Of a stretch of 64,000 bases of DNA, positions 22,987 through 64,000 are shown in pieces. The position numbers and the translations under genes are program-made. Position 1 is the first letter of the stretch. Every line of letters starts with the position of its first letter. Source of the stretch: Acidimicrobiales bacterium (lineage in GTDB: Bacteria > Actinomycetota > Acidimicrobiia > Acidimicrobiales > Bin134); contig OZ220474.1 of NCBI GenBank assembly GCA_965115985.1, positions 3,172,504 to 3,236,503 of the forward strand, read 5' to 3'. The notes under the pieces were generated by a model. That model was given only the letters and a program-made list of their open reading frames with translations, was not told the DNA's origin and searched no databases.

Positions 22987-23050
22987 CGTCCATGGACGTT
23001 ACATCAGGCTGCTACGCTGAAGTGGCGATCGTTGAGGAGGGAGGTGTCTG

Positions 23051-42402: not shown

Positions 42403-42558
42403 GCCGAGGGCTCGGGGACTCGATGAAACTGGGCTCAGGAACCGAGGACTCAAGGAACTGGGGACTCGAGGGGCCGAGGGCTCGGGGACTCGATGAAACT
42501 GGGCTCAGGAACCGAGGACTCAAGGAACTGGGGACTCGAGGGGCCGAGGGCTCGGGGG
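42403..42558. repeat. 2.2 x 70-bp tandem repeat between the SDR stop and the thioesterase start
   Basis: Copies start at 42403, 42473 and 42543, with additional diverged similarity at 42364-42402. Confidence 0.95.
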
Positions 42559-43485: not shown

Positions 43486-43637
43486 CCCGCAGCCGGCCTA
43501 CGAAGCCACTCGGGGCCTTACCGGCCGGTCGCTCATTCGTACAGTGCCCCGCAACCGGCCTACGAGGCCACTCGGGGCCTTACCGGCCGGTCGCTCATTC
43601 GTACAGTGCCCCGCAGCCGGCCTACGAAGCCACCCCC
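43486..43637. repeat. 2.5 x 62-bp tandem repeat carrying the DUF2236-gene stop
   Basis: Copies start at 43486, 43548 and 43610. The stop (cta 43622-43624) is in the copy nearest the gene and is repeated in the others. Confidence 0.95.
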
Positions 43638-45701: not shown

Positions 45702-46435
45702 TGGTCACCGGGGCCGGGTCGGGAATCGGCCAGGCCACTGCGGCCCGGCTGGTGGGCGAGGGAGCGGTCGTGGTGGGCAGCGACGTCAGTTCGTCCGGCC
45801 TGGAGGAGACCGCGGGGATGATCGATGGGATGGTCGATGGAGCCGGGGGTTTCCATCCGGTGGTGTCCGACGTGCGCTCCCGGGAGGCCTGCCATGAGTT
45901 GGTGGCCTCGACCGTGGCCGAGCACGGGCAACTGGACGTGCTGTGCAACATCGCCGGGTTGGCCCGGAGCCATCGAGTGGGCGATGTGGATCAAGGCACC
46001 TGGGATCTGATCATGGAGGTGAACGTGGGCGGGGTGTTCTGGATGTCGCAGGCCGCGCTCCCCCACCTGGAGGCCTCCGGGGGGTGCATCGTGAACATGG
46101 CCTCCAACGCCGGGCAGATCGGGCAGGCCTACACCGTGCCCTACTGCGCCAGCAAGGGAGCGGTGATCTTGATGACCAAGGCCATGGCCATGGAGACCAT
46201 CCGCACCTCGGTGAGGATCAACGCCGTCGCTCCGGGTGGGGTGGACACCAACCTGGTGACGTCCTTCGGGTTTCCCGACGACCCGGACATGGAGCTGATG
46301 GGGCGATACATGGGCTTTCGAGGAATGGCCCAGGCCGACGACATCGCCTCGGCGGTGGCCTACCTGGCCTCCCCCGAGGCCCACCGCATCCACGGAGCGG
46401 TCCTGAACGTCGATGCCGGCTTGACCGCCGGATGA
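45677..46435 (+). CDS. SDR-family oxidoreductase
   Basis: VTGAGSGIG Rossmann motif and YCASKGAV catalytic motif. Confidence 0.85.
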   Translation: MRFSGKVALVTGAGSGIGQATAARLVGEGAVVVGSDVSSSGLEETAGMIDGMVDGAGGFHPVVSDVRSREACHELVASTVAEHGQLDVLCNIAGLARSHRVGDVDQGTWDLIMEVNVGGVFWMSQAALPHLEASGGCIVNMASNAGQIGQAYTVPYCASKGAVILMTKAMAMETIRTSVRINAVAPGGVDTNLVTSFGFPDDPDMELMGRYMGFRGMAQADDIASAVAYLASPEAHRIHGAVLNVDAGLTAG

Positions 46436-46595
46436 GCTGGGGTCCTGAACGTCGATGCCGGCTTGACCGCCGGATGAGCTGGGGTCCTGAACGTCGATGC
46501 CGGCTTGACCGCCGGATGAGCTGGGATCCTGCCGGTCGCCGGGTGTTGGTCACCGGATGAGCTGGGATCCCGCCGGTCGCCGGGTGCTGGTCACC
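46400..46595. repeat. Nested tandem duplications (3 x 42 bp, then 2 x 41 bp) around an ATGA junction between two SDR genes
   Basis: ggATGAgctggg occurs at 46430, 46472, 46514 and 46555. The first TGA (46433-46435) stops SDR 1. The last ATG (46557) starts SDR 2. Confidence 0.97.
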
Positions 46596-47348
46596 GGGGC
46601 CTCGTCGGGCATCGGGGCCGCCCTGGCGGTGGAGTTGGGCCGGGGCGGAGCCTTCGTGGGCCTGGCCGCCCGCCGGGGCGACCGCCTCCAGCAGGTTCTG
46701 TCCGAGGTACGGGCCGCGGGCGGCGACGGCTGCTGGTGGACGCTCGACCTGGCCGATCTCGACGAGGTGGCCCCCTTCGCGGCGCGGGCCTGGGCGGAGA
46801 TGGGCCCCATCGACGTGCTGGTCAACAACGCGGGTGCTCCTCGACGACGGTCGATGAAGAGGCTCACCCCCGAGGAGCTGGACGAGACGTTGGCAGTGAA
46901 CTTCACCGGCTCGGCCCGGCTCACCCTGGCTCTTTTGCCCCACATGCTGGAGCGGGACTCCGGGGACATCGTGAACGTGTCGTCCATGGGCACCCAGTCG
47001 ATGGCCTTCAGAACCGGGGCCTACGGCGCGGCCAAGGCCGCCATCAACCTGTTCACCGAGGGCCTGTACATGGATCTGGCCGGAACCGGTGTCCGGGCTC
47101 ATCTGTTCGTCCCCGGCAGCACCGCCACCGAGTTCTCCACCCCCAAACCGGGCAACGACCGCCCGTTCCCCCAGCCCGAAGGGGCTTCCATGGACCCGGT
47201 GGACGTGGCCCGAGCCCTGATCGCCAAACTGGGCACCGACGACTTCGAGGGCTTCGCCGCCCCCGATCTCGAAAAAACCGCCCAAGCCAAACGCTCCGAC
47301 CCCAACCACTACCTGACACAAATGCTCAACCACCTCTCCCGACGCTAA
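46557..47348 (+). CDS. SDR-family oxidoreductase
   Basis: VTGASSGIGAA Rossmann motif and YGAAKAAI catalytic motif. Confidence 0.85.
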   Translation: MSWDPAGRRVLVTGASSGIGAALAVELGRGGAFVGLAARRGDRLQQVLSEVRAAGGDGCWWTLDLADLDEVAPFAARAWAEMGPIDVLVNNAGAPRRRSMKRLTPEELDETLAVNFTGSARLTLALLPHMLERDSGDIVNVSSMGTQSMAFRTGAYGAAKAAINLFTEGLYMDLAGTGVRAHLFVPGSTATEFSTPKPGNDRPFPQPEGASMDPVDVARALIAKLGTDDFEGFAAPDLEKTAQAKRSDPNHYLTQMLNHLSRR

Positions 47349-47461: not shown

Positions 47462-48343
47462 CTAGAATGTGAGCAATAGGCGATCTGATACTTGTTCATC
47501 CTCGAGTGTCTCTCCACCACGCTGAAACCTCCGCAATTGAGAGACTCCACAATTAACAAAAGCCTCGCGTTCGAATAATCCATCCGGAAGCTCAAACTCA
47601 ATAGTTCGTTGTCCAGACTTTTTAGTTCCATCAATACTGAGCAAGACAGCTACACCTCGGTCTTTGCATTCGCTAATTACATGGACCAGACGATCCAGTT
47701 TAAAGGTCTGTGCGCCATATAGTATTGCTTGAGTATCGCTATACGGAGGATCGCAGTATACGACATCTCCAGCCTTAGTTTGGCTCATTGCTTCTTCAAA
47801 ATCACAATTGGTGAAGGTTGTACCAGATACTCGTCTCGTCCAAATATCGACACGATTATCAAAAGAAGCTGGAGTAACCGGATTATGCGGTCCGCACGGT
47901 GTAGACATGTAACCATCCGCTTGCCTGAAACGAACGACCCCTCCGTAGCAGGAACGCGTCAGAAATAAAAAATCAGCAGCGTTTGGCTCTGTGTTGTAAG
48001 AGGTCTTGATGTCCTCATAAACCTCTAGTTTATTTCCTGCTTCCATTCGATTCCAGCGCTCACGATACCAATTCTTCAAAGTCTCTGGGTCTATTCGGAG
48101 TGTCTTCCATATATCAATAAGCGGTTTGAAAGCGTCCGACCCGTAACCAACCTCTGGTGCCAGTGTCCCAAGAACTGCGCCACTGCCCAAGAATGGTTCA
48201 TGATAAGCATTCCTGTCCTCAGGGAAGTAAGAGACGATCTCATGGGCAAAGCGCTGCTTGTTTCCGATCCACTTCAGTAGTTGTGTCTTGAACGGCCGGA
48301 TCGCTGGGCGAACGTCGTCGATGTGGAAAGCGAGTTGATGCAT
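47462..48343 (-). CDS. Dam-like (D12 class) N6-adenine DNA methyltransferase
   Basis: LLKWIGNKQRF, motif I EPFLGSGAVLG, motif IV CDPPY. AT-rich gene. The ATG at 48343 is preferred over the TTG at 48373. Confidence 0.85.
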   Translation of the reverse strand: MHQLAFHIDDVRPAIRPFKTQLLKWIGNKQRFAHEIVSYFPEDRNAYHEPFLGSGAVLGTLAPEVGYGSDAFKPLIDIWKTLRIDPETLKNWYRERWNRMEAGNKLEVYEDIKTSYNTEPNAADFLFLTRSCYGGVVRFRQADGYMSTPCGPHNPVTPASFDNRVDIWTRRVSGTTFTNCDFEEAMSQTKAGDVVYCDPPYSDTQAILYGAQTFKLDRLVHVISECKDRGVAVLLSIDGTKKSGQRTIEFELPDGLFEREAFVNCGVSQLRRFQRGGETLEDEQVSDRLLLTF

Positions 48344-48406
48344 GTTCCCGAACCTAGCCGAGCAGTGCGACAACGATGGTGTCCACTCCGTTTAGAGAGC
48401 GACTCC

Positions 48407-48431
48407 CTGGTCATCGTAGCACGATGACCAG
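48407..48431. promoter_or_regulatory. Perfect 11-bp inverted repeat with 3-nt spacer upstream of the methylase gene
   Basis: ctggtcatcgt-agc-acgatgaccag was read directly from the sequence. It could be an operator or a hairpin. The function is unknown. Confidence 0.4.
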
Positions 48432-48463
48432 GCACGATGGCCGATGCATTGTCAGCGGCGACC

Positions 48464-48600
48464 TGGTGTGGCCCCGGTTTGGTGGGCACCTGATTCAGGG
48501 TGTGGGTGCTGTGACCTGGAGGGAGGATGTCCGTGTGGGTCGTGCGTCCGAGTGCTCGTCGGGGTTCCATCGAGGGACGGCTGGTCAGGCGGCTTCGCTT
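48464..48600 (+). mobile_element. Remnant of an IS3-family element (terminal IR plus 5' orfA region)
   Basis: tggtgtggccccggtttggtgggcacctgatt resembles the IR of the intact IS at 24309-25588. The following sequence resembles its orfA start (GTGGGTCGTGCGTCCGAG vs ATGGGTCGTGTGTCGAAG). No transposase body follows. Confidence 0.5.
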
Positions 48601-48753
48601 GTCAGCACCGGGAGTCTCGTTCGATGCGAGCAAACTGCCTGGTAGAAGCACACGCCCGCCGCTGCTGGTCTCGAAGTGCCAGCAGGGTGGATGGTCCAAT
48701 GAACCAAAGAATCCTGAATTGGGATATCTTAGAATCGGGTCTAGACAAAGGGC

Positions 48754-48993
48754 GTGGAGAAAAGCATCGGAACCGCAGAGCATGCCGCGCTGGCAGCTTT
48801 GCTCCGAAGGCTGCGGGTCGAAGCTGGACTTCGACAATCCGAACTCGCAGAACTTCTTGAGGAACCTCAGTCCTTCGTCAGCAAGTACGAGTCGGGTGAG
48901 CACCGACTTGATCTAGTGGAGTTAAGGACAATTGCGCTTCACTTGGGTCTGGATATCATCGAACTATCACGCAAGTTTGAGAGATCTTTGTGA
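48754..48993 (+). CDS. XRE-family HTH protein, controller (C) protein candidate of the R-M cassette
   Basis: LRRLRVEAGLRQSELAELL..SFVSKYESGEHRLDLVEL is an HTH_3 pattern. 79 aa. Its stop overlaps the GTG of the downstream endonuclease candidate (GTGA). Confidence 0.7.
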   Translation: MEKSIGTAEHAALAALLRRLRVEAGLRQSELAELLEEPQSFVSKYESGEHRLDLVELRTIALHLGLDIIELSRKFERSL

Positions 48994-49811
48994 AACCACA
49001 CGATGAGTTTTTCAACCGAGAGAAGAGTTTCTGGGCGCACGTGCGTGCTATCAGCGAAACAGTTGGCTATACCAAGCGTGGGAGTGGGCTAGTAAAGGCT
49101 CCAACGGAGAATGAAATAAAAAGTGCTCTAGACAAGCGCGGTCTAGATGGGTCACGCACTTTATATAATGGCCTAGCTTTGGATTTGTACGCTTACTTCC
49201 AATATCGATCGAAAGTTCTAAATGAGGAGGTTGAAGGGCTCCTGATGGATGCTGATGAAGCAGAGAAACTGTTTGAAGAGCAGCACAATCTGCTGAGTCC
49301 AACCTGTCCAATCCCGATGAATAAACAAAAGGGCAAGATGAAAAAGCCAGCGTTTCTGACAGGACTTGTCAATATGCTTGTGGAAGCACATATCAATGGA
49401 ATGCCTTGCGACTATGATCCACGCTCCCTAACAACATTTACCAAAGACGGGGCACCACTTAGGACGCTCGCGAGACGTGTCGACGGTGCGTTTCCTTCTA
49501 CAGTTAATCCAAAGGCTATTTGGGAGATCAAAGAGTACTACTACACCACTACGTTCGGGAGCAGAGTTGCAGATGGTGTTTATGAGACTCTACTGGACGG
49601 AATGGAACTCGAAGAACTTCGGATGAACGAGGGCGTTAAGGTTCATCACTACTTGATGGTTGATAGTTACTACACGTGGTGGGAGTGTGGACGATCCTAT
49701 CTTTGCAGAATAATAGATATGCTTAATATGGGTCTTGTAGATGAAGTTCTTTTTGGCCGAGAGGTTGTGTCAGAACTGCCCCGTATCGTCCGTGGGTGGC
49801 TCACGGAATAA
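48990..49811 (+). CDS. Type II restriction endonuclease candidate (PD-(D/E)XK-like)
   Basis: AT-rich 273-codon ORF. VDGAFPS..x10..WEIKEY fits a D...(D/E)xK core. It is translationally coupled to the HTH gene and divergent from the methylase. No specific family was recognised. Confidence 0.5.
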   Translation: MKPHDEFFNREKSFWAHVRAISETVGYTKRGSGLVKAPTENEIKSALDKRGLDGSRTLYNGLALDLYAYFQYRSKVLNEEVEGLLMDADEAEKLFEEQHNLLSPTCPIPMNKQKGKMKKPAFLTGLVNMLVEAHINGMPCDYDPRSLTTFTKDGAPLRTLARRVDGAFPSTVNPKAIWEIKEYYYTTTFGSRVADGVYETLLDGMELEELRMNEGVKVHHYLMVDSYYTWWECGRSYLCRIIDMLNMGLVDEVLFGREVVSELPRIVRGWLTE

Positions 49812-51224: not shown

Positions 51225-52448
51225 TTAGCCGACGGCGAAATCCGGGTTGGGGGTGAACGTGAGCGGCAGCGAGGTCAGGCCCCGGGTGTAGACCCCGGTT
51301 TCGACCTGCTGGTAGCCATCGGCGTAGGCGATGTCGTCCATGGCGTCCAGCAGGGCGTCCATGGCCACGGTGAGCTCGGCCCGGGCCAGCATCGACCCCA
51401 CGCAGAAATGGCGGCCCAGTGCGAACGCGGTGTGGTTGGCCGCGGCGGTGAACGCCTTGTCGAACTCCAGGTCGGAGCGGTGGATGTCGAACCGGTCGGG
51501 TTCGCCGAACACCTCGGGATCCCGGTTGGCCGAACCCAAAAGCAGCTCAAGGGTACGACCCGCCTCCACCGTGCCCCCGGAGAACTCCACGTCCTCCTCG
51601 GTGTGGCGCATGATCATCTGCACCGGCCCGGTGTAGCGCAGCGTCTCGGCGAAGGCCCGGCCGATGAGTTGACGGTCGGCCCGCACCTCGGCCATCTGGT
51701 CGGGGTTGTCCAGCAGGTTCCGCATGGTCAGGGTGATGGCCTTCTCGGTGGTCTCTCCGCCGGCGGTCAGCAAAAGACTGCAAAACCCCCGAATGTCATC
51801 GTCGCTCATCCGGACACCGTCGAACTCCTTGGTCACCATGGCGGTGAGCAGGTCGTCGCCGGGGTTGGCCCGCCGCTCGGCGATCTTGGGCATCAGGTAC
51901 TCCCCCATCTCCTTTCGAGCCGCCATCCCCCGCCGGTTCTTCTCCTCGTCACCGGTGATGTTGGAGACGAAATCCATGATCATCGTGTACCACTGGTGGA
52001 ATTGGGGCACGTCCTCCATGGGCAGGTCGAGGAGCTGCACGATCACCCCGATCGGGTAGTAGGTGCTGAATCGGCGGCACAGATCCACCTCTCCGTCGGC
52101 CAGGAACTCGGCGATCTGGCTGCGGGCCGCCCTGGTGATGGCGGGCACGATGCTCTGCTCCAGGTAGCTGCCCCGAAAGATCGGGTTGACGATGCCCCGG
52201 TAGGAGGAGTGCTCCTTGCCCTCCATCTGGAGGATGGTGCGACCGTGGACCGGCTCGGTCTGCCACTCGTAGTTGCGGCTCGAAACCTTGGGGTTGCGGA
52301 AGGCTCCGGCCACGTCCTCGTAGCGGCTGATCACGTAGGCCTGGGTGCCCTCGTGCCACATCACCGGGTACTCGTTGCGAAGCACCTCGTAGTGCGGATA
52401 GGGGTCGGCATCGTACTGGGGGGACAAGATGTCAGGAGCAGCAGTCAT
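51225..52448 (-). CDS. Cytochrome P450
   Basis: Heme loop FALGRHFCVGSMLA, ETLR K-helix motif, AGGETT I-helix. The start is placed at Met104 of the track ORF (MTAAPDILSPQYDADPYPHY). Confidence 0.9.
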   Translation of the reverse strand: MTAAPDILSPQYDADPYPHYEVLRNEYPVMWHEGTQAYVISRYEDVAGAFRNPKVSSRNYEWQTEPVHGRTILQMEGKEHSSYRGIVNPIFRGSYLEQSIVPAITRAARSQIAEFLADGEVDLCRRFSTYYPIGVIVQLLDLPMEDVPQFHQWYTMIMDFVSNITGDEEKNRRGMAARKEMGEYLMPKIAERRANPGDDLLTAMVTKEFDGVRMSDDDIRGFCSLLLTAGGETTEKAITLTMRNLLDNPDQMAEVRADRQLIGRAFAETLRYTGPVQMIMRHTEEDVEFSGGTVEAGRTLELLLGSANRDPEVFGEPDRFDIHRSDLEFDKAFTAAANHTAFALGRHFCVGSMLARAELTVAMDALLDAMDDIAYADGYQQVETGVYTRGLTSLPLTFTPNPDFAVG

Positions 52449-52569
52449 GATCCATATAATATGACGGTTGATGACACTCCGACCGATCGTGCCGGCCGTG
52501 CAAGCGCGATCCGAAGCAGGCCACTTCATGTCCTCTGCCCAGCCCACCATTCTCTGGAGGCGGCTATGA

Positions 52570-52588
52570 CCCCCCCCCCCCCCCCCCC
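52570..52588 (+). repeat. C19 homopolymer tract upstream of the ~3631-aa gene
   Basis: 19 consecutive C residues, 6 nt before the TTG at 52595 and 39 nt before the ATG at 52628. Confidence 0.9.
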
Positions 52589-52627
52589 AATCAATTGCGG
52601 TTGTCAAGCTCGAGTCCGAGGCGACGA

Positions 52628-55600
52628 ATGGTTCGGAATAACCGAACCATCGCTCGCGAGGCACTGTCGCCTTCGCGGTTCCTGGCGCTTGCCGTTGCCT
52701 TCCTGCTGGTGCTGACGGTGACCCACGCCGTGTATTCGCCCGAACCCGCCACAGCACAAGCCGCGGTGCCGGTACTCACGGGCACCCCGGCCAATGCCCA
52801 GGTGGCCCTGTCCTGGGTCTACCCCACCGACCCCAACATCACCAACTGGCAGTATCAACAGAAGAAAGATGCGGCGGTCTACGGCGATTGGAGCGACATC
52901 GACGGCTCTGACGCCGGCACCCGCGGCCACACGATCACGGGCCTTACCAATGGCGCGGTCTACGGCTTTCGTGTTCGTCCTGTGATCGGAAGCACCCCCG
53001 GCACCGCATCCAGAGAGATCACGGCCACCCCGCGTGGTATCCCCTCTGCTGCGACAGGCCTCACCGCCACGCCCGGTGACGGGCAGATAACTCTGTCGTG
53101 GGACAGGCACCCGGATGCCAGCATCTCAGGCTGGGAGTTTTGGTACAAGCCGACGGATCTCTACCAGGGGGGCAGCTGGGCACCCATAGCTGGTTCTGAT
53201 GCCACCACCACCAGCCACGCGGTCACTGGCTTGACCAACGGAAGGGAATACGTCTTCCAGATTCGTGCCGCCAACCGGATTGGTCGCGGACCCATATCAG
53301 CAGAGGTCAAGGCCACGCCCGTAGCCGCCCGGCCCGCTGCGCCGACCGGTGTCACCGCGACTGCGGGCCATCAGCAGGTGAGCTTGTCGTGGAGCGACCC
53401 TGGCCAACCCAGCATCACCCGCTGGCAATATCAACAAAATGACGGTACCGGCTACGGCTCGTGGACGAACATGGCCGACTCCACTGCGACAACCACCAGC
53501 TATACGGTGACGTCCCTCACCAATGGCACTGCCTACAAGTTCAAGGTCCGTGCGGTGAATGACAGGGGGGCCGGTACCCCATCAGCAGAGGTTACAGCCA
53601 CGCCAACACTCCCTCCGCCTGCCAGACCTACGGGTTTTCGAGCTTTGGGATCGGGTCCTATAACGAATCCTGTCACCGGCTACTATGCGGGTCGGCTGAC
53701 GTTTTATTGGGATAATCCAAATGATCCCACGATCACCAAGCGGCAGTATTACGAGCATGACTTTGGAAGAAGGTGGATAGATCTAGCCAATTCCGGTGCT
53801 GATACCACAAGTGCTTCGATTCGAGTGAGCGCAGGTATTGGATTGCCATACAGTATTCGTGCCTGCAACATGGCAGGATGTGGTGCATCTACTGCTCGAA
53901 CTGGCTTTGTCAGGCCGAATCGACGGGATCCAAGGCCGGCGAAGCCGACCGGCCTTACCGCTACTGAAGTGGGTGATGGATTTGTGACATTGTCTTGGGA
54001 CAACCTGGGGGATTCCGGCATCGGCTATTGGCATGTTCGGTGGTGGGTGGTTGGGAGCAGTCGCCCGAACTGGGATGCAAGCCTTTCCCAGGTAGCCAGG
54101 GTTGATGGCGCAACCAATACCACCTATAAGGTGGAGCGTTTGACGAGTAATGAGGAGTACGAATTTCAGATCAGGGCGTACTATTCCTCGGGAAACAAGG
54201 CGAACATTCAGGACTCGGATACGATACGTGCTACTCCGATATCGGCACCTGGTATACCCGGCGGGTTTCGTGCCATAGGTGGGGATACGCAGGTTACTTT
54301 GTCATGGAACAAACACAGAAGTTCTGGTATCACCCGGTGGGAATATCAGCAAAGGAAAGAACCAAGTGGAACGGGCAAGTTTGGTGACTGGATTCCCATC
54401 CCAGGTTCCGATACTGCTACCACCAGTCACACTGTAACCGGTCTTCAGCAAGGAGGCACATACACCTTCAAAGTTCGTGCTGTGAACCGTATCGGCAATG
54501 GTCTAGCCTCAGCAGAGCGTACCACTGTCGCTGAGACAGATGCAGAGGTGCCTTGCAGGGTAGTCCTTTCGGACGCTTTGGGTAGCAATATTAGGAGCGG
54601 TCAAATACGGGTTAGTTTTGACATACTTGTTCCGGAAAACTGCGGGAAGATCACCTTTTTTGATTATCAAGCCAAGACTCTCAGCCAAGACTGGGACGAT
54701 GTGAACTGGCAGCCTGTGACCAATTTCAATGGAGATGATTTCGAGAATATGCCGACCTTTCAAGTACGTAAAAACGCCGCAGAGTCAGATGTATCAGTAA
54801 CTTCCCCCCAGAATTTGGATGTACGCATTCGGGCAGAAAACTTAGGCGCGCTTGAGGAGGGTCCGCCCTCTGATCCAGTGCGGATTTGGGCTGGGGATGC
54901 TCCGGCTGTTACCGGACTCAGGGCGGCAGGCAACGATAGGTCGGTCACCTTGTTTTGGGACCCCAAGCCTGACCGGGGCGTTATACATTGGGAATACGGA
55001 TACAAGCCTGATGGTGGGAATTGGTCAACTGATGTGCAGCTAGATGCTAAAGCCTCCATGACTCGGGTCTCCGGTCTGGCCAATGGAACCGAATACACGT
55101 TCCGTTTGCGGTCCCAGTCAGGGTATAATGGCGTGAAGAGCGATTGGGTTGAAACCACAGCCATACCAACAGTTACACCGCTCGGTGTTACGGTTTCTGA
55201 GTCTGAGTTGACCGTGGCGGAGGGCAGCAGTGGCACCTACACGGTCAAGTTGAACGCCGCCCCGTCTGACGATGTAACAGTTTCGATAATCGGGTCCTCT
55301 GGCGATGTGACGGTGAGTCCTCCCAGTCTGACGTTTACCACCAACAACTTCAACAGTGTGCAAACGGTGACAGTTTCGGCAGCCAAGGACGATGATGCAA
55401 TCATTGACCCTCCGGTGACTTTGACGCACAGTGCCTCTGGAGGGAGTTATAGCTTTGTGGATATCGGTTCTGTATTGGTGAAGGTCACAGACAGGGACAC
55501 CGCTGGTGTTACGGTTTCCGAGTCTGAGTTGACTGTACGGGAAGGCACCAGTCAGACCTACACCGTGAAACTTGATACACGAGCCCAGGAGAATGTGACG

Positions 55601-58600
55601 GTTTCGATAAGCGGAGCCTCTGGTGATGTGACCGTGTCACCTGAGAAACTGTTCTTTACCACCAGTAACTTCAACACTGCCCAGACGGTGACTGTGGCAG
55701 TTGGAAGTGACTCGGATTCGGTTGACGATCCGCCGGTTACTTTGACACACGCCGCATCCGGAGGAGATTACGGCGGCGTGAGCATTGACTCACTGACGGT
55801 GAATATCACTGACTCCAATCCACCTGCGGCACCAACAGGTCTGACGGCAACGTCAGGTGATACGAGCGTTGATTTGTCGTGGAACGATCCCAGCGACCCA
55901 AAAATCACCAGTTGGCAATTTCAGTACAAACCCGATGGCGGTAGCTACGGTGGATGGGCGGGGATTGCCAACTCTGGTGCCTCCACCACCACTCACACAG
56001 TCACGGGCCTGACCAACTACACGGAATACACCTTCCAGGTTCGCGCCGTCAGTGCCAATGGCGAAAGCGATCCCTCCAACGAAGCTACGGCAACGCCGAA
56101 GGCACCACCACCCGCAGCACCAACCGGCTTGACCGCCACTCCCGGTGACGGAGAGGTTACTTTGGGTTGGACCAACCCCAGCAATGCCAGCATCACCCGC
56201 TACGAGTATCAGCAGAAGATCGGTACCGGTAACTACGGTGCATGGACGGCGATTGCCAGCTCTGGTGCCTCCACCATCAGTCACACGGTTGCATCCTTGA
56301 CGAACGGCACTACTTACGCCTTCAAAATTCGAGCGGTGAACTCCACCGGCAATGGTGCAGCCTCAGCCGAGGCAACCGCCAGGCCGCTACCGCCTCTACC
56401 TGCAGCACCGACCGGCTTTACAGCTAATCCTCGCGATGGATCGGTACTGCTGCTTTGGTCTGATCCAGGTAATGCCAGCATAACGGGTTATGAGTTTCAG
56501 TTGAAGATGGGCAATAACTATGGCCCGGAGTGGGCACCGATTTCAGGCTCTGATGCGCTTACTACCGAACACATAGTCCCAAACTTGAAAAACGGTACTG
56601 CCTATACATTCAGAATCCGAGCGGTGAATCTGGCCGGCAAGGGTGCGCCTTCCGCCGATTCGACCGCGACCCCAATACCTGTGCCCGAAAGTCCTAGGAA
56701 ATTCGAGACTATTGGAAGTGATGAGCGGGTGACCTTGTATTGGGCTAATCCGAAGGATCCCACGATCACGAAGTGGCAGTATCGATACAGACTTTGGACT
56801 CTTCAGATCCCCGGTTTTCAGAGTCCGCCGAACCCTTTTGGCGCATGGACGGATATGAGTGGCTCTGATGCCACCACTACAAGCTTCGCGGTTACGGGAT
56901 TGACTAGCGGTACATTTTATGATTTCCAAATTCGTGCCGTTAACGTCGCCGGTGACGGCTTAGCTTCTAAAGTACTTACGGAAGCGGCAATCGCTAAGCC
57001 GGCTAGGCCGAGCGGCCTTACCGCTACTCCAGGTGATGGACAGGTGACCCTGTCTTGGGACGATCCTAAGGATACCAAGATCAGTCATTACCTTTTAAGG
57101 TACAAGGCCCCCACTGATTTTATTCATCCACCATGGGTTGAGAGCCATGCGCAGGTATTCAAGGTTGACGGCGCAACTGCTGTCACTTATACTGTGACAG
57201 GTTTGAACAATGGTACGACCTATGACTTCCAAATTGTGGCGTACCACATATCAACACCGGGCACTGCGTCGAAGTCGGTGCGTGTTGCTCCCGTGTCACC
57301 GGCACCGGCCAAACCCACTGGTTTGACGGCCACGGCTGGTGTGAGATCAGCGATGTTGTCTTGGACTGATCCCAATGACGATTCGATAACCATCTATGAG
57401 TACCGTCAAAGGAAAGGCAGCGATAGTTGGGGTGGCTGGACTCTGATTCCTGGTTCGGGTGCTGAGACTACGTCTCACACGGTGTCTGGCTTGGATTATA
57501 CCGATGATTACCGGTTCCGGATACGAGCCAAAGGCACCACCGGCAATAGCCCAGCATCAGAGGTAGTAACAGTCGCGCCCGCTTTCGGCACCCTGAGCAT
57601 TGCTGATGTGTCAGCAGATGAAGGCGGCACGTTCACCTTTACCGCGATGGTCAGTGCTGCGCCTCCTGAGAACCTGGATTTCAAGTATACTGTCACGGCA
57701 GAAACTGGTGATACGGCTATACCTGGTACGGACTTCACGGCAGTAACCATTGCAACCGCGGCCCGCATAAATGCCACCGAGACCAGCACCACTATCACAG
57801 TGACAGTTAACGATGACGGCGTGGTTGAACCTGATGAGACGTTCACGGTCACTCTTTCGGACGTGCCGGAAAGCATAATTTTGGCCGATGTAACCGCGCA
57901 GGGCACGATCACCAATGACGACAACACGCCGGTGCTGACTGCGATTGACAACTTCACGATCAAACGTGGTCAAACGGTTGACATAACAGCTTCTGCCACT
58001 GATGTGGATGCCTCTGATGCGATCACTTACTTGTGGGCGCGTAAGGCTGGTGAGACTCCTGCGGCACCTGCTGGGATCACTCTTGGCCAAGCACAGTTGA
58101 CGTTCACGCCGACGGCACTAGGAGCTTACACGTACACGGTTACCGCGTCAGACAACCACGGTAACGAGACTACTGAAGAAGTGATTATTACCGTGGTCGA
58201 GGCTGCCACAGTGTCAAAGTCCAGCATCGAACTCACTGAAGGTGCTAATGGCACGTACACGGTGAAGTTGAACTCCGTGCCGAGCGGTGATGTGACGATC
58301 ACGGTTGGTGGGGCCACTTCTGATGTGACGGTGGACAAGTCCTCGTTGACGTTCACCACATTGAACTGGAGTTCGGCTCAGACGGTCACGGTCACCACAG
58401 AGGCGGATGAGGACACCACCGACGAAACGGTCACGTTGACCCACACCGCTTCGGGTGGTGGCTACGTCTCGGCAACCATCGCATCCGTGAGGGTTTCGGT
58501 GACCGATACGACGCCTACCTTCCAGCTCCTCACTGATCCGGCTGATGTGACCGAGGGAGATAACATCAGCCTCACGGTCACGTCGGACATGTCGCTTACG

Positions 58601-61600
58601 GGAACCAAGCAAGTAACCCTGACACTGGCCGCGAGATCATCGAGCACTTTTGATGCTGATGATATTCCAGGCACTCTAGGCCCCAGATCCTTCTCAGCCA
58701 ACTTTGGGAGCAATCCCAGCAAAACCGGAACCATATCAATTCCTACCAGCAGCGACTCGGACACCGAAGGTACGGAAGCCTACCGAATCACCCTCAATGA
58801 AGGGACCGGTTACGCGGCGGGCACGGATAAAAGAGCAGACGGCAACTTGCTCGACCTGGCTCCTCCTCCGACCATCAATTTGAGTGTTGGTGATGTGTCG
58901 GCTTTGGAGGATGGGACGTTCACGTTCACTGTGACGGCTAATCCGATACCGACTGAGGGGATCAGTTTCAAGTACAAGGTGACCGCCGAGACCACCGATA
59001 CCGCTACCGCTACCGATGACTTCACCGCGGTGACCACTGCTACGGCCAAGACCATCGCAGCCAACACTGCTACTACGACGATTGTTGTCACGGTCGTGGA
59101 CGACGACCTGGACGAAAAAAACGAGACATTCACAGTGACCTTGTCCGACCCGTCCGACGGCGTTACCATCAGTGATGCGACTGCTACGGGTACCATTAAT
59201 GACAACGATAATTCGCCGGTGTTGACCGCGATTGATGATGATACCTTGTACTTGGGTCAGCAAGTCGATATCAGAGCGACGGCCACTGACGCCGATGCCG
59301 ACACGATCACTTACACGTGGGCGCGCAAGGCCGGTGAAACTCCTGCGTTGCCTGGTGGTACTGCTTTGAGTGATAGGCGTTTGCGGTTCACTCCTACCGC
59401 TACGGGCACCTACACGATGACGGTCACCGCATCCGACGGTAACGGCAACTCCGCCACCGAGGAAGTGGTGATAACCGTTATCAACGCGGCCACCGTGTCG
59501 AAGTCCGCGTTGACCGTCGAGGAAGGCAGCACCGGCAGCTACACGGTGAAACTCAACGCCGAACCCACCGGTAATGTGACCGTCACCGTTGGTGGTGTTT
59601 CGGGTGATGTGACGGTGGACAAGTCCTCGTTGACTTTTACCACGACCGATTATGCCACTGCTCAAACGGTGATGGTGACCGCTGCTGGTGATGAGGACAC
59701 CACCACCGATCCGACCGTGACCTTGACCCACACCGCTTCGGGTGGTGGCTATGGTTCCGCGACGATCACGTCGGTAGTGGTAACTGTCACGGAGAACACG
59801 CCGACGCTTACATTGGGAAATAATCCTGCCGCGGTGACCGAGGGCGACAATATTTCTCTGACCGTCACGTCGGACCGATCCCTGACGGGAACTCTCCAAG
59901 TCTCGCTCACGCTGGCCGATCGAGGATCCAGCGGATTCGACGCTGCTGACATCGCCGGCTCCTTGGGTCCACGAAACTTCACCGCCACCTTCGGCAACAC
60001 TGCTTCCACCACCGGGACAATCACCATCGCAACCAACACCGACACCAACGACGAAGGCGCAGAAACCTACACCATCACCCTGAACGACGGCACCGGCTAC
60101 GCCATCGGCACGGACACCACCGCCGAAGGAACCATAAACGACCCCACCCCAACACCCACCCCCACCCCCACCCCAACACCCACTCCTGTTCCTACGGTGT
60201 CGTTGAGCATTGCTGATGTGTCGGCTTCGGAGGATGGGACGTTCACGTTCACTGTGACGGCCAATCCGATACCGACTGAGGGGATCAGTTTCAAGTACAA
60301 GGTGACCGCCGAAACCACCGATACCGCTACCGCTACCGATGACTTCACCGCGGTGACCACTGCTACGGCCAAGACCATCGCAGCTAACACCGCCACCACG
60401 ACAATCACTGTAGTGGTGGTGGACGACGAGCTGGATGAAAAAAACGAGACGTTCACGGTGACTCTGTCGGACCCGTCCGATGGTGTGATTATTGGTGATG
60501 CGACTGCCACGGGTACCATCAACGACAACGATAATTCGCCGGTGTTGACTGCGATTGATGACGACACCTTGTATTTGGGCCAGCAAGTCGATATCAGGGC
60601 GACGGCCACCGATGCGGATGCCGACACGATCACTTACACGTGGACGCGCAAGGCCAGTGAAACTCCTGCGTTGCCTGGTGGCACTACTTTGAGTGATAGG
60701 CGTTTGCGGTTCACTCCTACCGCTACGGGCACATACACGATGACGGTCACCGCATCGGATGGCAGCGGCAACTCCGCCACCGAGGAAGTGGTGATAACCG
60801 TTATAAACGCGGCCACGGTGTCGAAGTCCGCGTTGACCGTCGAGGAAGGCAGCACCGGCAGCTACACGGTGAAACTCAACGCCGAACCCACCGGTAATGT
60901 GACCGTCACCCTTGGTGGTACGACCAGCGATGTGACGGTGGACAAGTCCTCGTTGACGTTTACTACCTCGAATTGGAGTGCGGCTCAGACAATCGTGGTT
61001 ACCGCAGAGGCGGATGAGGACACCACCGACGAAACTGTCACGTTGACCCACACCGCTTCTGGTGGTGGCTACGCCTCGGCGACGATTGCGTCCATAAGCG
61101 TTTCGACGACCGATACTACGCCCACTTTCCAGCTTCTCACCGATCCGGCTGATGTGACCGAGGGTGGCAGCATCAGCCTGACCGTCACGTCGGACATGTC
61201 GCTTACGGGAACCAAACAGGTGAGTTTGACGTTGGCGGCGAGGTCGTCGAGTACTTTCACTGCTGCTGATATCGTAGGGACACTAGGGCCCAGGTCCTTC
61301 TCGGCTGATTTTGGTAGTACTCCCAGCAAAACTGGAACCATCTCGATTGCTACGAGTAGCGATTCGGCCACCGAGGGTACGGAAGCCTACCGGATCACCT
61401 TGAACGATGGTGCGGGTTATGCACTGGGTATGGATAAAAGAGCAGACGGCAATCTGCTCGACCCGACCCCTACTCCGACCATTAATTTGAGCATTGCTGA
61501 TGTGTCGGCTTCGGAGGATGGTACGTTCACGTTCACGGTCACGGCCAGTCCGATACCGACTGAGGGGATCAGTTTCAAGTACAAGGTGACCGCCGAAACC

Positions 61601-63523
61601 ACCGATACCGCTACCGCTACCGATGACTTCACCGCGGTGACCACTGCTACGGCCAAGACCATCGCTGCCAACACCGCCACCACGACGATTGTTGTCACGG
61701 TCGTGGACGACGACCTGGACGAGAAGAACGAGACGTTCACGGTGACCTTGTCCGACCCGTCCGACGGCGTTACCATTAGTGATGCGACTGCTACGGGTAC
61801 CATTAATGACAACGATAATTCGCCGGTGTTGGTTTCCATCGAAGACGACACCTTGTACCTGGGTCAGCAAGTCGATATCAGAGCGACGGCCACCGATGCG
61901 GATGCCGACACGATCACTTACACGTGGGCGCGCAAGGCCGGTGAAACTCCTGCGTTGCCTGGTGGTACTGCTTTGAGTGATAGGCGTTTGCGGTTCACTC
62001 CTACCGCTACGGGCACCTACACGATGACGGTCACCGCATCCGACGGTAACGGCAACTCCGCCACCGAGGAAGTGGTGATAACCGTTATCAACGCGGCCAC
62101 CGTGTCGAAGTCCGCGTTGACCGTCGAGGAAGGCAGCACCGGCAGCTACACGGTGAAACTCAACGCCGAACCCACCGGTAATGTGACCGTCACCGTTGGT
62201 GGTGTTTCGGGTGATGTGACGGTGGACAAGTCCTCGTTGACTTTTACCACGACCGATTATGCCACTGCTCAAACGGTGATGGTGACCGCTGCTGGTGATG
62301 AGGACACCACCACCGATCCGACCGTGACCTTGACCCACACCGCTTCGGGTGGTGGCTATGGTTCCGCGACGATCACGTCGGTAGTGGTAACTGTCACGGA
62401 GAACACGCCGACGCTTACATTGGGAAATAATCCTGCCGCGGTGACCGAGGGCGACAATATTTCTCTGACCGTCACGTCGGACCGATCCCTGACGGGAACT
62501 CTCCAAGTCTCGCTCACGCTGGCCGATCGAGGATCCAGCGGATTCGACGCTGCTGACATCGCCGGCTCCTTGGGTCCACGAAACTTCACCGCCACCTTCG
62601 GCAACACTGCTTCCACCACCGGGACAATCACCATCGCAACCAACACCGACACCAACGACGAAGGCGCAGAAACCTACACCATCACCCTGAACGACGGCAC
62701 CGGCTACGCCATCGGCACGGACACCACCGCCGAAGGAACCATAAACGACCCCACCCCAACACCCACCCCCACCCCCACCCCAACACCCACTCCTTCGCCA
62801 CAAAGTCCACCTGGAACCATGCCCAGCACGCCTACGGGAGTGACCGCCACTGTGGGTGACACCGAGGTCACCATCTCCTGGTCCAGCGGCGGCACCGGCA
62901 ATGGCGGCACCTGCGCCTCCGACAAGTACTACGTCACCGTCTACGACGCCACCCAGCAGCTCTTCCCCGCGGTGGCCGAGTCGCTGCCCATGATCAGCGG
63001 CACGAGTTGGTACATAGACGAACTCACACCCAGCACCCGCTACTACGTCGAAGTGGAAGCCTGGGGCGATGCCTGCGAAGAGTACTCCGAAGAACTCGGC
63101 ACCGCGTTCTTCACCACCAACGCATCCTCCAGCACCGGCGACCCCAGTGCTCCCGTCCCTCGTAAAAAACGCGCCCCCGCCCCCGTCAGAGACCTGGAGG
63201 TGGACACCAGTACCAGCGGGCAGATAACCATCACCTGGAAAAAACCCATCGACATCGGCACCAATCGCAGCAAACGCTGCGCCTACACTGCCGAAGCCTC
63301 CGACCACGCCGACCTTTCCATCGAATACAATTACCTCGTCGAAAACCTCTACTCCGGCACCGACATCACCGACTCATACTTCACATCCAACGCGGCCACC
63401 CTGTCCAAAACCATTACCGGCATACCCACGGGAACCGGCCACCGCCTACGAGTAACGGTAACCGCCTACTCCGAACAATGCGGCTATTGGTCCAACTCCA
63501 GCGACCACACATGGTGGTCTTGA
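52628..63523 (+). CDS. Giant secreted FN3 / Calx-beta / cadherin-like / Ig-like repeat protein (~3631 aa)
   Basis: The signal peptide is MVRNNRTIAREALSPSRFLALAVAFLLVLTVTHA. Many FN3 units follow, up to about 57.5 kb. Then come four ~430-aa super-modules, each with a Calx-beta-like segment (TAETTDTATATDDFTAV...DDDLDEKNETFTVTL), a cadherin-like segment and Ig-like segments. Two Cys-containing FN3-like units close the protein. A TTG at 52595 is an alternative start. Confidence 0.85.
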   Translation: MVRNNRTIAREALSPSRFLALAVAFLLVLTVTHAVYSPEPATAQAAVPVLTGTPANAQVALSWVYPTDPNITNWQYQQKKDAAVYGDWSDIDGSDAGTRGHTITGLTNGAVYGFRVRPVIGSTPGTASREITATPRGIPSAATGLTATPGDGQITLSWDRHPDASISGWEFWYKPTDLYQGGSWAPIAGSDATTTSHAVTGLTNGREYVFQIRAANRIGRGPISAEVKATPVAARPAAPTGVTATAGHQQVSLSWSDPGQPSITRWQYQQNDGTGYGSWTNMADSTATTTSYTVTSLTNGTAYKFKVRAVNDRGAGTPSAEVTATPTLPPPARPTGFRALGSGPITNPVTGYYAGRLTFYWDNPNDPTITKRQYYEHDFGRRWIDLANSGADTTSASIRVSAGIGLPYSIRACNMAGCGASTARTGFVRPNRRDPRPAKPTGLTATEVGDGFVTLSWDNLGDSGIGYWHVRWWVVGSSRPNWDASLSQVARVDGATNTTYKVERLTSNEEYEFQIRAYYSSGNKANIQDSDTIRATPISAPGIPGGFRAIGGDTQVTLSWNKHRSSGITRWEYQQRKEPSGTGKFGDWIPIPGSDTATTSHTVTGLQQGGTYTFKVRAVNRIGNGLASAERTTVAETDAEVPCRVVLSDALGSNIRSGQIRVSFDILVPENCGKITFFDYQAKTLSQDWDDVNWQPVTNFNGDDFENMPTFQVRKNAAESDVSVTSPQNLDVRIRAENLGALEEGPPSDPVRIWAGDAPAVTGLRAAGNDRSVTLFWDPKPDRGVIHWEYGYKPDGGNWSTDVQLDAKASMTRVSGLANGTEYTFRLRSQSGYNGVKSDWVETTAIPTVTPLGVTVSESELTVAEGSSGTYTVKLNAAPSDDVTVSIIGSSGDVTVSPPSLTFTTNNFNSVQTVTVSAAKDDDAIIDPPVTLTHSASGGSYSFVDIGSVLVKVTDRDTAGVTVSESELTVREGTSQTYTVKLDTRAQENVTVSISGASGDVTVSPEKLFFTTSNFNTAQTVTVAVGSDSDSVDDPPVTLTHAASGGDYGGVSIDSLTVNITDSNPPAAPTGLTATSGDTSVDLSWNDPSDPKITSWQFQYKPDGGSYGGWAGIANSGASTTTHTVTGLTNYTEYTFQVRAVSANGESDPSNEATATPKAPPPAAPTGLTATPGDGEVTLGWTNPSNASITRYEYQQKIGTGNYGAWTAIASSGASTISHTVASLTNGTTYAFKIRAVNSTGNGAASAEATARPLPPLPAAPTGFTANPRDGSVLLLWSDPGNASITGYEFQLKMGNNYGPEWAPISGSDALTTEHIVPNLKNGTAYTFRIRAVNLAGKGAPSADSTATPIPVPESPRKFETIGSDERVTLYWANPKDPTITKWQYRYRLWTLQIPGFQSPPNPFGAWTDMSGSDATTTSFAVTGLTSGTFYDFQIRAVNVAGDGLASKVLTEAAIAKPARPSGLTATPGDGQVTLSWDDPKDTKISHYLLRYKAPTDFIHPPWVESHAQVFKVDGATAVTYTVTGLNNGTTYDFQIVAYHISTPGTASKSVRVAPVSPAPAKPTGLTATAGVRSAMLSWTDPNDDSITIYEYRQRKGSDSWGGWTLIPGSGAETTSHTVSGLDYTDDYRFRIRAKGTTGNSPASEVVTVAPAFGTLSIADVSADEGGTFTFTAMVSAAPPENLDFKYTVTAETGDTAIPGTDFTAVTIATAARINATETSTTITVTVNDDGVVEPDETFTVTLSDVPESIILADVTAQGTITNDDNTPVLTAIDNFTIKRGQTVDITASATDVDASDAITYLWARKAGETPAAPAGITLGQAQLTFTPTALGAYTYTVTASDNHGNETTEEVIITVVEAATVSKSSIELTEGANGTYTVKLNSVPSGDVTITVGGATSDVTVDKSSLTFTTLNWSSAQTVTVTTEADEDTTDETVTLTHTASGGGYVSATIASVRVSVTDTTPTFQLLTDPADVTEGDNISLTVTSDMSLTGTKQVTLTLAARSSSTFDADDIPGTLGPRSFSANFGSNPSKTGTISIPTSSDSDTEGTEAYRITLNEGTGYAAGTDKRADGNLLDLAPPPTINLSVGDVSALEDGTFTFTVTANPIPTEGISFKYKVTAETTDTATATDDFTAVTTATAKTIAANTATTTIVVTVVDDDLDEKNETFTVTLSDPSDGVTISDATATGTINDNDNSPVLTAIDDDTLYLGQQVDIRATATDADADTITYTWARKAGETPALPGGTALSDRRLRFTPTATGTYTMTVTASDGNGNSATEEVVITVINAATVSKSALTVEEGSTGSYTVKLNAEPTGNVTVTVGGVSGDVTVDKSSLTFTTTDYATAQTVMVTAAGDEDTTTDPTVTLTHTASGGGYGSATITSVVVTVTENTPTLTLGNNPAAVTEGDNISLTVTSDRSLTGTLQVSLTLADRGSSGFDAADIAGSLGPRNFTATFGNTASTTGTITIATNTDTNDEGAETYTITLNDGTGYAIGTDTTAEGTINDPTPTPTPTPTPTPTPVPTVSLSIADVSASEDGTFTFTVTANPIPTEGISFKYKVTAETTDTATATDDFTAVTTATAKTIAANTATTTITVVVVDDELDEKNETFTVTLSDPSDGVIIGDATATGTINDNDNSPVLTAIDDDTLYLGQQVDIRATATDADADTITYTWTRKASETPALPGGTTLSDRRLRFTPTATGTYTMTVTASDGSGNSATEEVVITVINAATVSKSALTVEEGSTGSYTVKLNAEPTGNVTVTLGGTTSDVTVDKSSLTFTTSNWSAAQTIVVTAEADEDTTDETVTLTHTASGGGYASATIASISVSTTDTTPTFQLLTDPADVTEGGSISLTVTSDMSLTGTKQVSLTLAARSSSTFTAADIVGTLGPRSFSADFGSTPSKTGTISIATSSDSATEGTEAYRITLNDGAGYALGMDKRADGNLLDPTPTPTINLSIADVSASEDGTFTFTVTASPIPTEGISFKYKVTAETTDTATATDDFTAVTTATAKTIAANTATTTIVVTVVDDDLDEKNETFTVTLSDPSDGVTISDATATGTINDNDNSPVLVSIEDDTLYLGQQVDIRATATDADADTITYTWARKAGETPALPGGTALSDRRLRFTPTATGTYTMTVTASDGNGNSATEEVVITVINAATVSKSALTVEEGSTGSYTVKLNAEPTGNVTVTVGGVSGDVTVDKSSLTFTTTDYATAQTVMVTAAGDEDTTTDPTVTLTHTASGGGYGSATITSVVVTVTENTPTLTLGNNPAAVTEGDNISLTVTSDRSLTGTLQVSLTLADRGSSGFDAADIAGSLGPRNFTATFGNTASTTGTITIATNTDTNDEGAETYTITLNDGTGYAIGTDTTAEGTINDPTPTPTPTPTPTPTPSPQSPPGTMPSTPTGVTATVGDTEVTISWSSGGTGNGGTCASDKYYVTVYDATQQLFPAVAESLPMISGTSWYIDELTPSTRYYVEVEAWGDACEEYSEELGTAFFTTNASSSTGDPSAPVPRKKRAPAPVRDLEVDTSTSGQITITWKKPIDIGTNRSKRCAYTAEASDHADLSIEYNYLVENLYSGTDITDSYFTSNAATLSKTITGIPTGTGHRLRVTVTAYSEQCGYWSNSSDHTWWS
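57593..62809. repeat. Four ~1.3-kb coding super-repeats (1287, 1323, 1284, 1323 bp) forming a 2607-bp higher-order repeat
   Basis: Unit starts at 57593, 58880, 60203 and 61487. Antisense ORFs 59749-60048 and 62356-62655 translate identically (offset 2607). Units 2 and 4 are identical over roughly 300 aa. Confidence 0.95.
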
Positions 63524-63569
63524 TAAACCAAACCACGGCTAAACCAAACCAACGACTAAACGGAAACCC

Positions 63570-64000
63570 ATGAGCAAAACCACCCCACCGGAACAGACAA
63601 CCCCACTGTCCAAGACGACCTCGTTGGAACAGGCCGTAGCGTCGATTCCCGACGGGGCCACGGTGGCCATCGGTGGGTTGTCGATGAACAGCGCCCCCAT
63701 GGCTCTGGTGCGTGAGTTGGTGCGCCAGGAGAAGAAGGACTTGAGCTTGGTGGCCATCGTGGCCGGTATGGCGGTGGACTGGCTGGTGGCCGGGGGCTGC
63801 GTGCGCCGAGTGATCTCCGGGCTGGTCAGCTTCGAGGGACTGGGCCTGGCTCCCAATTTCAGGGCCGCGGTGCAGTCGGGCCGGGTGGATATAGAGGAAT
63901 ACAGCGAACACCTGCTGATCTGTCGGCTTCAGGCCCAGAGCTACGACCTGCCGTTCGTGCCCACCAGGGCCGGGCTGGGCACCGACGTCCTCGGCCTGCA
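63570..64000 (+). CDS. CoA-transferase subunit A family protein (3' end outside window)
   Basis: Own translation gives MSKTTPPEQTTPLSKTTSLEQAVASIPDGATVAIGGLSMNSAPMALVRELVRQEKKDLSLVAI..., a typical family I CoA-transferase alpha N-terminus. The frame is open to the window end. Confidence 0.7.
   Translation, partial: MSKTTPPEQTTPLSKTTSLEQAVASIPDGATVAIGGLSMNSAPMALVRELVRQEKKDLSLVAIVAGMAVDWLVAGGCVRRVISGLVSFEGLGLAPNFRAAVQSGRVDIEEYSEHLLICRLQAQSYDLPFVPTRAGLGTDVLGL

Follow-up and report, generated by a model that had tools for sequence, protein, structure and literature searches.

The 64-kb stretch of DNA analysed here (the window; 64,000 nucleotides (nt) of contig OZ220474.1 from an Acidimicrobiales bacterium) holds a giant gene whose product is a secreted protein of about 36 β-sandwich domains, and this gene, which is under purifying selection, ends in a C-terminal array of four tandem units that recombine with one another. 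With all evidence taken together, it is likely that the array was built, and is still edited, by recombination between cassettes in a gene that came as a foreign 11-kb insert, and that it would, by analogy, form the C-terminal stalk of an adhesin-like "eukaryotic-like protein" exported by the Sec pathway. The repeat is real, was correctly interpreted in an earlier note made from the sequence, and is ordinary for such genes; the foreign origin of the gene and a poly-C run in its leader were less expected.

The four-unit array and its mosaic identity

The giant gene occupies a single very long open reading frame (ORF) on the plus strand, 52595-63523. The open frame begins at TTG 52595, and the likely start is ATG 52628 (52628-63523, 3,631 amino acids (aa)), with a typical signal peptide, MVRNNRTIAREALSPSRFLALAVAFLLVLTVTHAVYSPEPATAQA|A, at the beginning of the product. 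We defined the units by repeat finding and by an alignment of our own. Each consists of four domains, A to D, and they follow one another head-to-tail on the plus strand: U1 (57587-58873; 1287 nt, 429 aa) with the halves a1 and b1, U2 (58874-60196; 1323 nt, 441 aa) with a2, b2 and a long Pro-Thr linker, U3 (60197-61480; 1284 nt, 428 aa), a mosaic that is a2-type on the left and b1-type on the right, and U4 (61481-62803; 1323 nt, 441 aa), again with a2, b2 and the long linker. The four super-modules of about 430 aa that had been placed at 57593-62809 are thus found at most 6 nt away, and the period of 2607 nt claimed for them holds for 58.0-60.2 kb against 60.6-62.8 kb, the offset from U1 to U3 being 2610 nt. 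The Pro-Thr linker with which U2 ends is specified by a CCNACN microsatellite (60142-60183, plus strand), and this has a twin in U4 (62749-62790).

U2 and U4 are 97% identical in their DNA overall, as compared to 62-77% for the other unit pairs. The near-identity over about 1 kb that was reported for them proved to contain an exact tract of 894 nt on the plus strand, 59294-60187 in U2 and 61901-62794 in U4, at an offset of 2607. All 40 differences between the two units fall within the first 420 columns of the alignment or in the last 9 nt, with 33 of them, mostly synonymous, in the 420 nt beside the exact tract; had the 40 differences been spread uniformly, the probability of a difference-free gap of 894 nt would be about 1e-18. 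The tract begins within domain B and stops 9 nt before the end of the unit, where the homology ends, which in U4 is the junction with the unique C-terminal region. Synonymous divergence (dS) between U2 and U4 drops abruptly from 0.29 in codons 1-140 to 0 in the next 300 codons or so, from codon 141 to the linker, which is characteristic of gene conversion. Selection was rejected as the cause of the identity of U2 and U4, as synonymous sites are identical too.

The mosaic structure of U3 is evident from the informative sites. To the left of about position 60920 they side with U2/U4 (222 sites, against 16 with U1), to the right with U1 (133 sites, against 28 with U2/U4), and they place the parental switch at 60913-60932 on the plus strand, inside domain C. 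Directly downstream of the switch there is a block of 31 nt in which the four units do not differ at all, and such a place would readily host a crossover or the end of a heteroduplex. The first half of U3 has 60% aa identity to U1 and 94% to U2, in agreement with the earlier claim that it matches U2 and U4, but the second half, which was said to match U1, does so only relatively and not closely, with about 82% identity in nt (74-90% per 90-nt window) and 85% in aa. Over the 33 sites that distinguish U2 from U4, U3 agrees now with the one and now with the other, in short runs, which indicates several short conversion tracts. Furthermore, since the breakpoints ignore the domain borders, these are events of homologous recombination at the DNA level and not selected domain swaps. 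The evidence supports the earlier note in that no explanation of the pattern works without homologous recombination inside the gene.

The differences between units are overwhelmingly at third codon positions of the plus frame, and the ratio of nonsynonymous to synonymous divergence (dN/dS) is 0.1-0.2 in every unit pair; purifying selection keeps every unit folded. The dS values form a wide range: between the type 1 (U1) and type 2 (U2/U4) halves they are saturated (>1.5), between the second halves of U1 and U3 (U1b and U3b) dS is 0.66, among the first 140 codons of U2, U3 and U4 it is 0.29-0.45, and for codons 141-239 of U3 against U2/U4 it is 0.10. Such a range, from 0 to saturated, implies several recombination events of different ages. 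For calibration we used the orthologous N-terminal part of a giant gene, L014, from an Acidimicrobiales metagenome-assembled genome (MAG), against which dS is 0.40 and dN/dS 0.30. Judged by these values, the relationship between U1b and U3b would be older than the split from L014 (0.66 as compared to 0.40). The a-half of U1 shows 60% aa identity to U2-U4 and 82% to L014.

Four antisense ORFs (58736-61051, 61283-63307, 59749-60066 and 62356-62673) were rejected as genes, because the units differ at third codon positions of the sense frame and all domain matches are in the plus frame. Those starting at 59749 and 62356 do translate identically, as had been pointed out, which is a trivial consequence of the identical DNA.

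The domains of U2 were delimited on the plus strand with Pfam, hidden Markov models (HMMs) and a structural model as A 58874-59212, B 59213-59485, C 59486-59797 and D 59798-60148. Domain A is a Calx-beta domain (PF03160), the U2 copy alone scoring 30.1 bits against a gathering cut-off of 27. Domain B belongs to the PKD/He_PIG/Big_9 group of immunoglobulin (Ig) domains, with expect values (E) of 1e-9 to 1e-10 and with 41.5 bits for Big_9 (cut-off 23.6), 40.3 for He_PIG (24) and 39.1 for K319L-like_PKD (27). Domain C is Ig-like and has no Pfam match, and domain D gives a weak Calx-beta score, 16.6 bits against the cut-off of 27, so that it is Calx-beta-like and not a demonstrated member of that family. 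In the composition first proposed for the units the "cadherin-like" segment is not established, as Cadherin_5 scores 23.4 bits, below the cut-off of 26.5. An AlphaFold2 model of U2, made from a 20-sequence alignment, has a mean predicted local distance difference test (pLDDT) score of 89.4 and shows four consecutive all-β sandwiches. With this model Foldseek found tandem-Ig rods of a generic kind (the titin I-band, contactins, PrgB and the GhpA grappling hook), none of them a specific functional homologue; a search of PDB sequences with the unit profile gave only weak matches to the Calx-beta domains of Na/Ca exchangers.

Formation of the array

Homologous recombination of the RecA type between cassettes probably accounts for the array and for its continued editing. 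The starting point would be two deeply diverged cassette types, type 1 represented by U1 and type 2 by U2/U4, with saturated synonymous sites. An old two-unit duplication or unequal crossover would then have given the alternation b1-b2-b1'-b2. At a later stage the first halves of U2, U3 and U4 would have been homogenised patchwise (dS 0.1-0.45), leaving U3 as an a2/b1 chimera, and a very recent gene conversion would finally have transferred 894 nt or more from one of the units U2 and U4 to the other. The earlier note had proposed recent unequal crossing-over or gene conversion. Recombination is indeed what we find, but recency applies only to the U2/U4 tract, and gene conversion fits this newest event better than a fresh crossover, since a crossover would leave a full identical block of 2607 nt.

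A simpler explanation of the period of 2607 nt and of the alternation b1-b2-b1-b2 could be that a single recent unequal crossover duplicated a two-unit block of 2607 nt, and that the differences arose later. However, a fresh duplication predicts uniform near-identity, and at an offset of 2607 the identity is about 61-65% at 58.0-58.3 kb and rises by way of 74-96% to 100%. The dS values also vary from 0 to 0.66 across the segments, and the first half of U3, so much closer to U2 than to U1, would need a later conversion anyway. A single crossover is disfavoured as the sole event, and improbable as the explanation of the whole array, yet it is likely to have been the old founding step of the alternation.

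The U3 b-half or the a2 halves could also have been imported from other genes of the family, by ectopic conversion within the genome or by horizontal transfer. Family members combine AB, CD, ABC and F cassettes in patchwork fashion and include genes that share 93-98% of their DNA between MAGs assigned to different phyla, there are at least 12 family loci in the Acidimicrobiales MAG, and the orthologue diverges exactly at a domain boundary, all of which would suit such an origin. We still find import very improbable, given that the nearest relative of every segment of U2-U4 is another unit of the same gene. The a2 copies are 94-97% identical in aa and b1 and b1' 85%, as compared to 66-74% for the best external matches in a search that covered one genome per species. 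As the segments are closer to their sister units than to any external sequence, the array must have expanded in this lineage.

Short-read assemblers have difficulty with exact repeats of about 0.9 kb, and six near-perfect tandem duplications at gene junctions, at 40.0-46.6 kb of the same window, are a possible warning sign that the array could be an artefact, either expanded by the assembly or made of two slightly different copies smoothed to one consensus. Against this, the malate synthase of the window (P0121) is recorded on a contig of 3,371,582 base pairs, a scale typical of long-read assembly, which implies reads long enough to span the 5.2 kb. As the two identical tracts differ in their flanks and have the unique U3 between them, the path can have only one order, and an error could affect no more than the number of (U3+U4)-type cycles. 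The reading frame is uninterrupted, with mainly synonymous differences, and comparable repeats are present in relatives on complete MAG chromosomes. An assembly artefact is thus quite unlikely.

Recombination between cassettes of a foreign surface-protein gene remains our preferred explanation, and several points weigh against it. The older events were put in order by parsimony and not from a dated tree, and the view is limited to 64 kb, so that other family genes in the genome are possible ectopic donors of the U3 halves. Both the exact 894-nt identity and the copy number rest on the assembly. The sponge origin of the sample is deduced from the names of relatives, and the function as adhesin or stalk is proposed by analogy, neither an anchor motif nor a ligand-binding domain having been identified.

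The giant protein, its foreign origin and its relatives

The giant gene is a foreign low-GC (guanine plus cytosine) insert in an Acidimicrobiia chromosome. In the alignment with a close relative, L052, the P450 gene upstream (51238-52467) is 88.5% identical in DNA (92% in protein) and the coenzyme A (CoA)-transferase gene downstream (63625-64000) 86.2%. The distance between these two genes is 67 nt in L052 (9914-9982) and 11,158 nt in the window, and the segment absent from the relative, 52467-63625, holds only the giant gene and its leader. The segment has a GC content of 56.9% as compared to 64-70% in its flanks; the gene itself has 57% GC and a GC content at third codon positions (GC3) of 0.63, with values of 0.56-0.77, while that of neighbouring housekeeping genes is about 0.87. 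At the borders of the insertion we saw no target-site duplication, integrase or transposase. In the 47-nt gap between the stop of the giant gene and the start of the CoA-transferase gene there is a 16-nt tandem repeat, TAAACCAAACCAACGAC, of 2.3 copies (63524-63561), which stands in place of the spacer seen in L052.

The host itself is placed by the malate synthase G of the window, whose nearest named relatives, at 80% identity, are Candidatus Poriferisocius (Acidimicrobiales). The matches to the gene family carry the names of MAGs which we take to be sponge-derived.

From its N-terminus the giant protein is made up of the signal peptide, seven fibronectin type III (FN3) domains, two Ig-like domains, six FN3 domains, the four ABCD units and C-terminal FN3-like domains; home-made HMMs for domains A-D and FN3 gave the string F7-C2-F6-(ABCD)x4-F for the whole protein. 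In Pfam it scores 360 bits for fn3 (12 stretches) and 76.3 bits for Calx-beta (4 stretches), with matches also to He_PIG and PKD. Threonine makes up 17% of the residues, and the N-terminal signal peptide is the sole hydrophobic segment, no second one being found in the protein. According to the domain scans the unique C-terminal region (62804-63520, plus strand) consists of two Cys-containing FN3-like domains, and it has no relative in any fetched locus or in the metagenomes of the Joint Genome Institute (JGI). A search of Rfam at gathering thresholds gave nothing in the 64-kb window.

Proteins with fn3, cadherin and Calx-beta domains are enriched in sponge Acidimicrobiia (PMC11706023), and such eukaryotic-like genes have been laterally transferred among sponge symbionts (PMC8163846). 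The giant protein has both fn3 and Calx-beta out of these three domains, and its gene is probably a new member of this known class of modular FN3/Calx-beta/Ig surface proteins of sponge-associated bacteria. It shares with the proteins of these two studies the Pfam domain classes, the lineage (with Candidatus Poriferisocius as nearest named relatives) and the signs of lateral transfer, here a low-GC island absent from L052 and near-identical members across phyla. Both studies count domains per genome, and the ABCD super-module, its intragenic recombination and the poly-C leader are not described there.

Periscope proteins and fibrillar adhesins (Rib/alpha C, SasG/Aap, Sgo0707; PMC8201768, PMC9704523) are likewise single-chain arrays of independently folding β-sandwich domains, in which DNA-identical repeat stretches are attributed to homologous recombination and the rod-like stalk is expected to vary in length. 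Periscope proteins are recognised by repeats longer than 50 residues that are nearly the same in sequence, by a repeat number that differs among close strains and by attachment to the cell surface. Contrary to these proteins, where the unit is one domain of 50-165 aa, the unit here is a 430-aa block of four different domains, present as four units of two old types with mosaic identity. Nor does the giant protein have an LPXTG-like motif or any other recognised cell-wall anchor motif that would provide the surface attachment of a Periscope protein, and we do not claim that it belongs to that class. The giant Ca2+-dependent adhesins of Gram-negative bacteria, LapA, SiiE and MpIBP, are similar in their very long strings of Ig-like domains and their acidic motifs of the Ca2+-binding type, which in the Calx-beta domains of the giant protein take the form DDD..E..E. 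It differs from them in lacking repeats-in-toxin (RTX) repeats and a type I secretion signal, in having an N-terminal Sec-type signal peptide and in its actinobacterial host.

By analogy with the fibrillar adhesins and Periscope proteins (PMC9704523), the giant protein may be an extended rod, stiffened by Ca2+ at the acidic motifs of its Calx-beta domains. The number and composition of the modules could then tune the reach of the rod or its recognition by the sponge host, with the number and type of ABCD units setting the length and surface of the stalk and recombination between units supplying the variants. The repeat is a textbook case of concerted evolution inside a giant surface-protein gene and a marker of ongoing recombination, and in practical terms it calls for care in annotation and assembly. 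Of wider interest are the foreign insert, the near-identical relatives across phyla, the reshuffling of module order even between orthologues and the poly-C runs before most genes of the family.

The giant orthologues were found via DNA loci, and the protein index gave no homologue longer than about 790 aa. A scan of one genome per species yielded 47 related loci, almost all in complete MAG chromosomes, in which A, B, C, D and FN3 cassettes are combined in shuffled order. Their hosts are Acidimicrobiales, Thermoanaerobaculia, Vicinamibacteria, Binatia, Thermodesulfobacteriota, Dehalococcoidia and several Gammaproteobacteria. Outside the giant gene, the DNA of the window does not resemble any of the fetched family loci. 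The part collinear with L014 is 53887-58512 on the plus strand, with 83.3% DNA identity over 4,662 nt, and the homology ends exactly at the boundary between domains C and D of U1 (58512). Beyond it the array of L014 reads ABC-ABC-F-BDC-F..., as compared to (ABCD)x4 in the window. Many family members, such as L024, L025, L044 and L020, have tandem units of 1.3-1.9 kb with about 96-98% identity. The lability in copy number that had been ascribed to such arrays is thus supported indirectly, by the different array of L014 and by the tandem units of the relatives. A search of the JGI metagenomes with the unit alignment gave only three distant loci, with 29-42% identity, and no strain-level relatives.

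It was also possible to observe near-identical giant genes within the family. The loci L002 and L003, L004 and L007/L010/L019, and L027 and L002 share 93-98% of their DNA over 7-16 kb (98.4% over 15.8 kb for L002 and L003). These pairs are on complete MAG chromosomes assigned to different phyla (Thermoanaerobaculia, Pseudohongiella, Pseudomonadales, Binatia and Thermodesulfobacteriota), and their upstream flanks differ. Such near-identity across phyla is the result of either very recent transfer between phyla or chimeric assembly. On a 2-Mb cyanobacterial contig with PsaA/PsaB nearby (L001, 7826-12049) a family gene is split into several consecutive ORFs, one product of which, P0001, is the best protein match to the unit (68% identity), and a fragment of a DDE transposase adjoins it; the split gene may be a pseudogene or a frameshifted copy.

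The poly-C leader and other features of the window

A run of 19 C (C19; 52570-52588, plus strand) is located 39 nt upstream of ATG 52628 of the giant gene. Homopolymers of at least 9 nt occur only three times in the 64 kb, and a second one, C16 (34995-35010, minus-strand sense), is found about 15 nt upstream of the GTG of a second FN3 gene. Both C19 and C16 are simple-sequence tracts at the 5' end of a gene, as in phase-variable contingency loci. The third run of the window, C17 (26775-26791), lies in a convergent intergenic gap without a family gene.

The same arrangement is common in the family. In a count that covered the window and 48 fetched loci, 25 of the 38 sense-strand C runs of at least 10 nt were within 450-nt windows at the 5' ends of the 43 family ORFs, windows which make up 0.9% of the searched space. 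The expected number is 0.35 runs (binomial P about 5e-42, with the reservation that paralogues are not independent, while their flanks differ between lineages). Of the 43 family genes, 25 thus have such a run ahead of them, across many bacterial lineages, and the runs, C11-C19 in the sense strand, are located 15-45 nt before the start codons of these FN3/Calx-beta/Ig genes (loci L002, L003, L006, L011, L012, L017, L029-L033, L035-L039, L042 and L043). Paralogues with similar flanks have runs of C11, C13, C14, C14 and C17. In L042, which has a recognisable promoter, TTGTTA-N17-TATAAT, the C run begins about 17 nt past the -10 box and thus early in the 5' untranslated region (UTR). A scan for sigma-70 promoters and terminators around the start of the giant gene found nothing. 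The ATG directly before C19 is out of frame by 2 in the window, and the equivalent ATG is in frame in L030 and L042. A hairpin that would mask the Shine-Dalgarno sequence of the giant gene was considered and is not supported, the leader fold being of ordinary stability (z = -0.95), with the C run unpaired.

Contingency loci have homopolymer tracts at the promoters or 5' ends of surface-protein genes, as in Bordetella fim, Neisseria opc and Treponema tpr. Such tracts are also known from inside coding genes (PMC2831843). The family runs are similar in that C11-C19 are directly upstream of surface-protein genes and differ in length among paralogues with similar flanks, and different in that the run is downstream of a recognisable -10 box, in the early 5' UTR, and not between the promoter hexamers. 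The poly-C run looks like an element of the contingency-locus type, and expression of the giant gene may be modulated through C19. In the searchable literature we found no paper that links poly-C tracts with sponge symbionts.

It is conceivable, as a tentative idea that we ourselves consider rather doubtful, that the mobile gene family of sponge-microbiome bacteria of many phyla has a variation system of two layers, cassette recombination and a C11-C19 switch. The first layer would reshuffle Calx-beta, Ig and FN3 modules within and between genes, and in the second the C run of the leader would be a hypermutable switch or rheostat of expression, possibly by slipped-strand changes in length, by an altered frame from the upstream ATG, or by effects on Rho or translation. 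If this is true, the two layers together would enable symbionts to vary, or to switch off, the large surface proteins seen by the sponge host. The regulation of "eukaryotic-like" surface proteins in sponge symbionts has so far been addressed only by domain counting, and a poly-C run of variable length would be a first concrete handle on the regulation and variation of these proteins in uncultured symbionts.

The second FN3-array gene (28866-34979, minus strand, 2037 aa) has at least nine fn3 stretches and is the only other such gene in the window. Its GC content is near that of the host (67%, GC3 0.78), and its leader and signal peptide resemble those of small F-A-B genes of the Acidimicrobiales MAG.

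The six near-perfect tandem duplications are at consecutive gene junctions of a metabolic cluster (40010-40198, 41489-41677, 42403-42557, 43486-43633, 46399-46531 and 46512-46597), with periods of 74, 34, 70, 62, 42 and 41 nt, respectively, and 2-5.6 copies. Inspection shows that in at least two of them the repeated sequence comprises the final codons and the stop of the preceding gene, and that in one it comprises the initial codons of the gene that follows. Finally, two low-GC islands (52-53% GC) at 21279-24229 and 47462-49811 contain genes of defence type, in one island a C5 DNA methylase and a nucleotidyltransferase-HEPN protein, and in the other a D12 adenine methylase and a DUF7690/DUF7687 protein.

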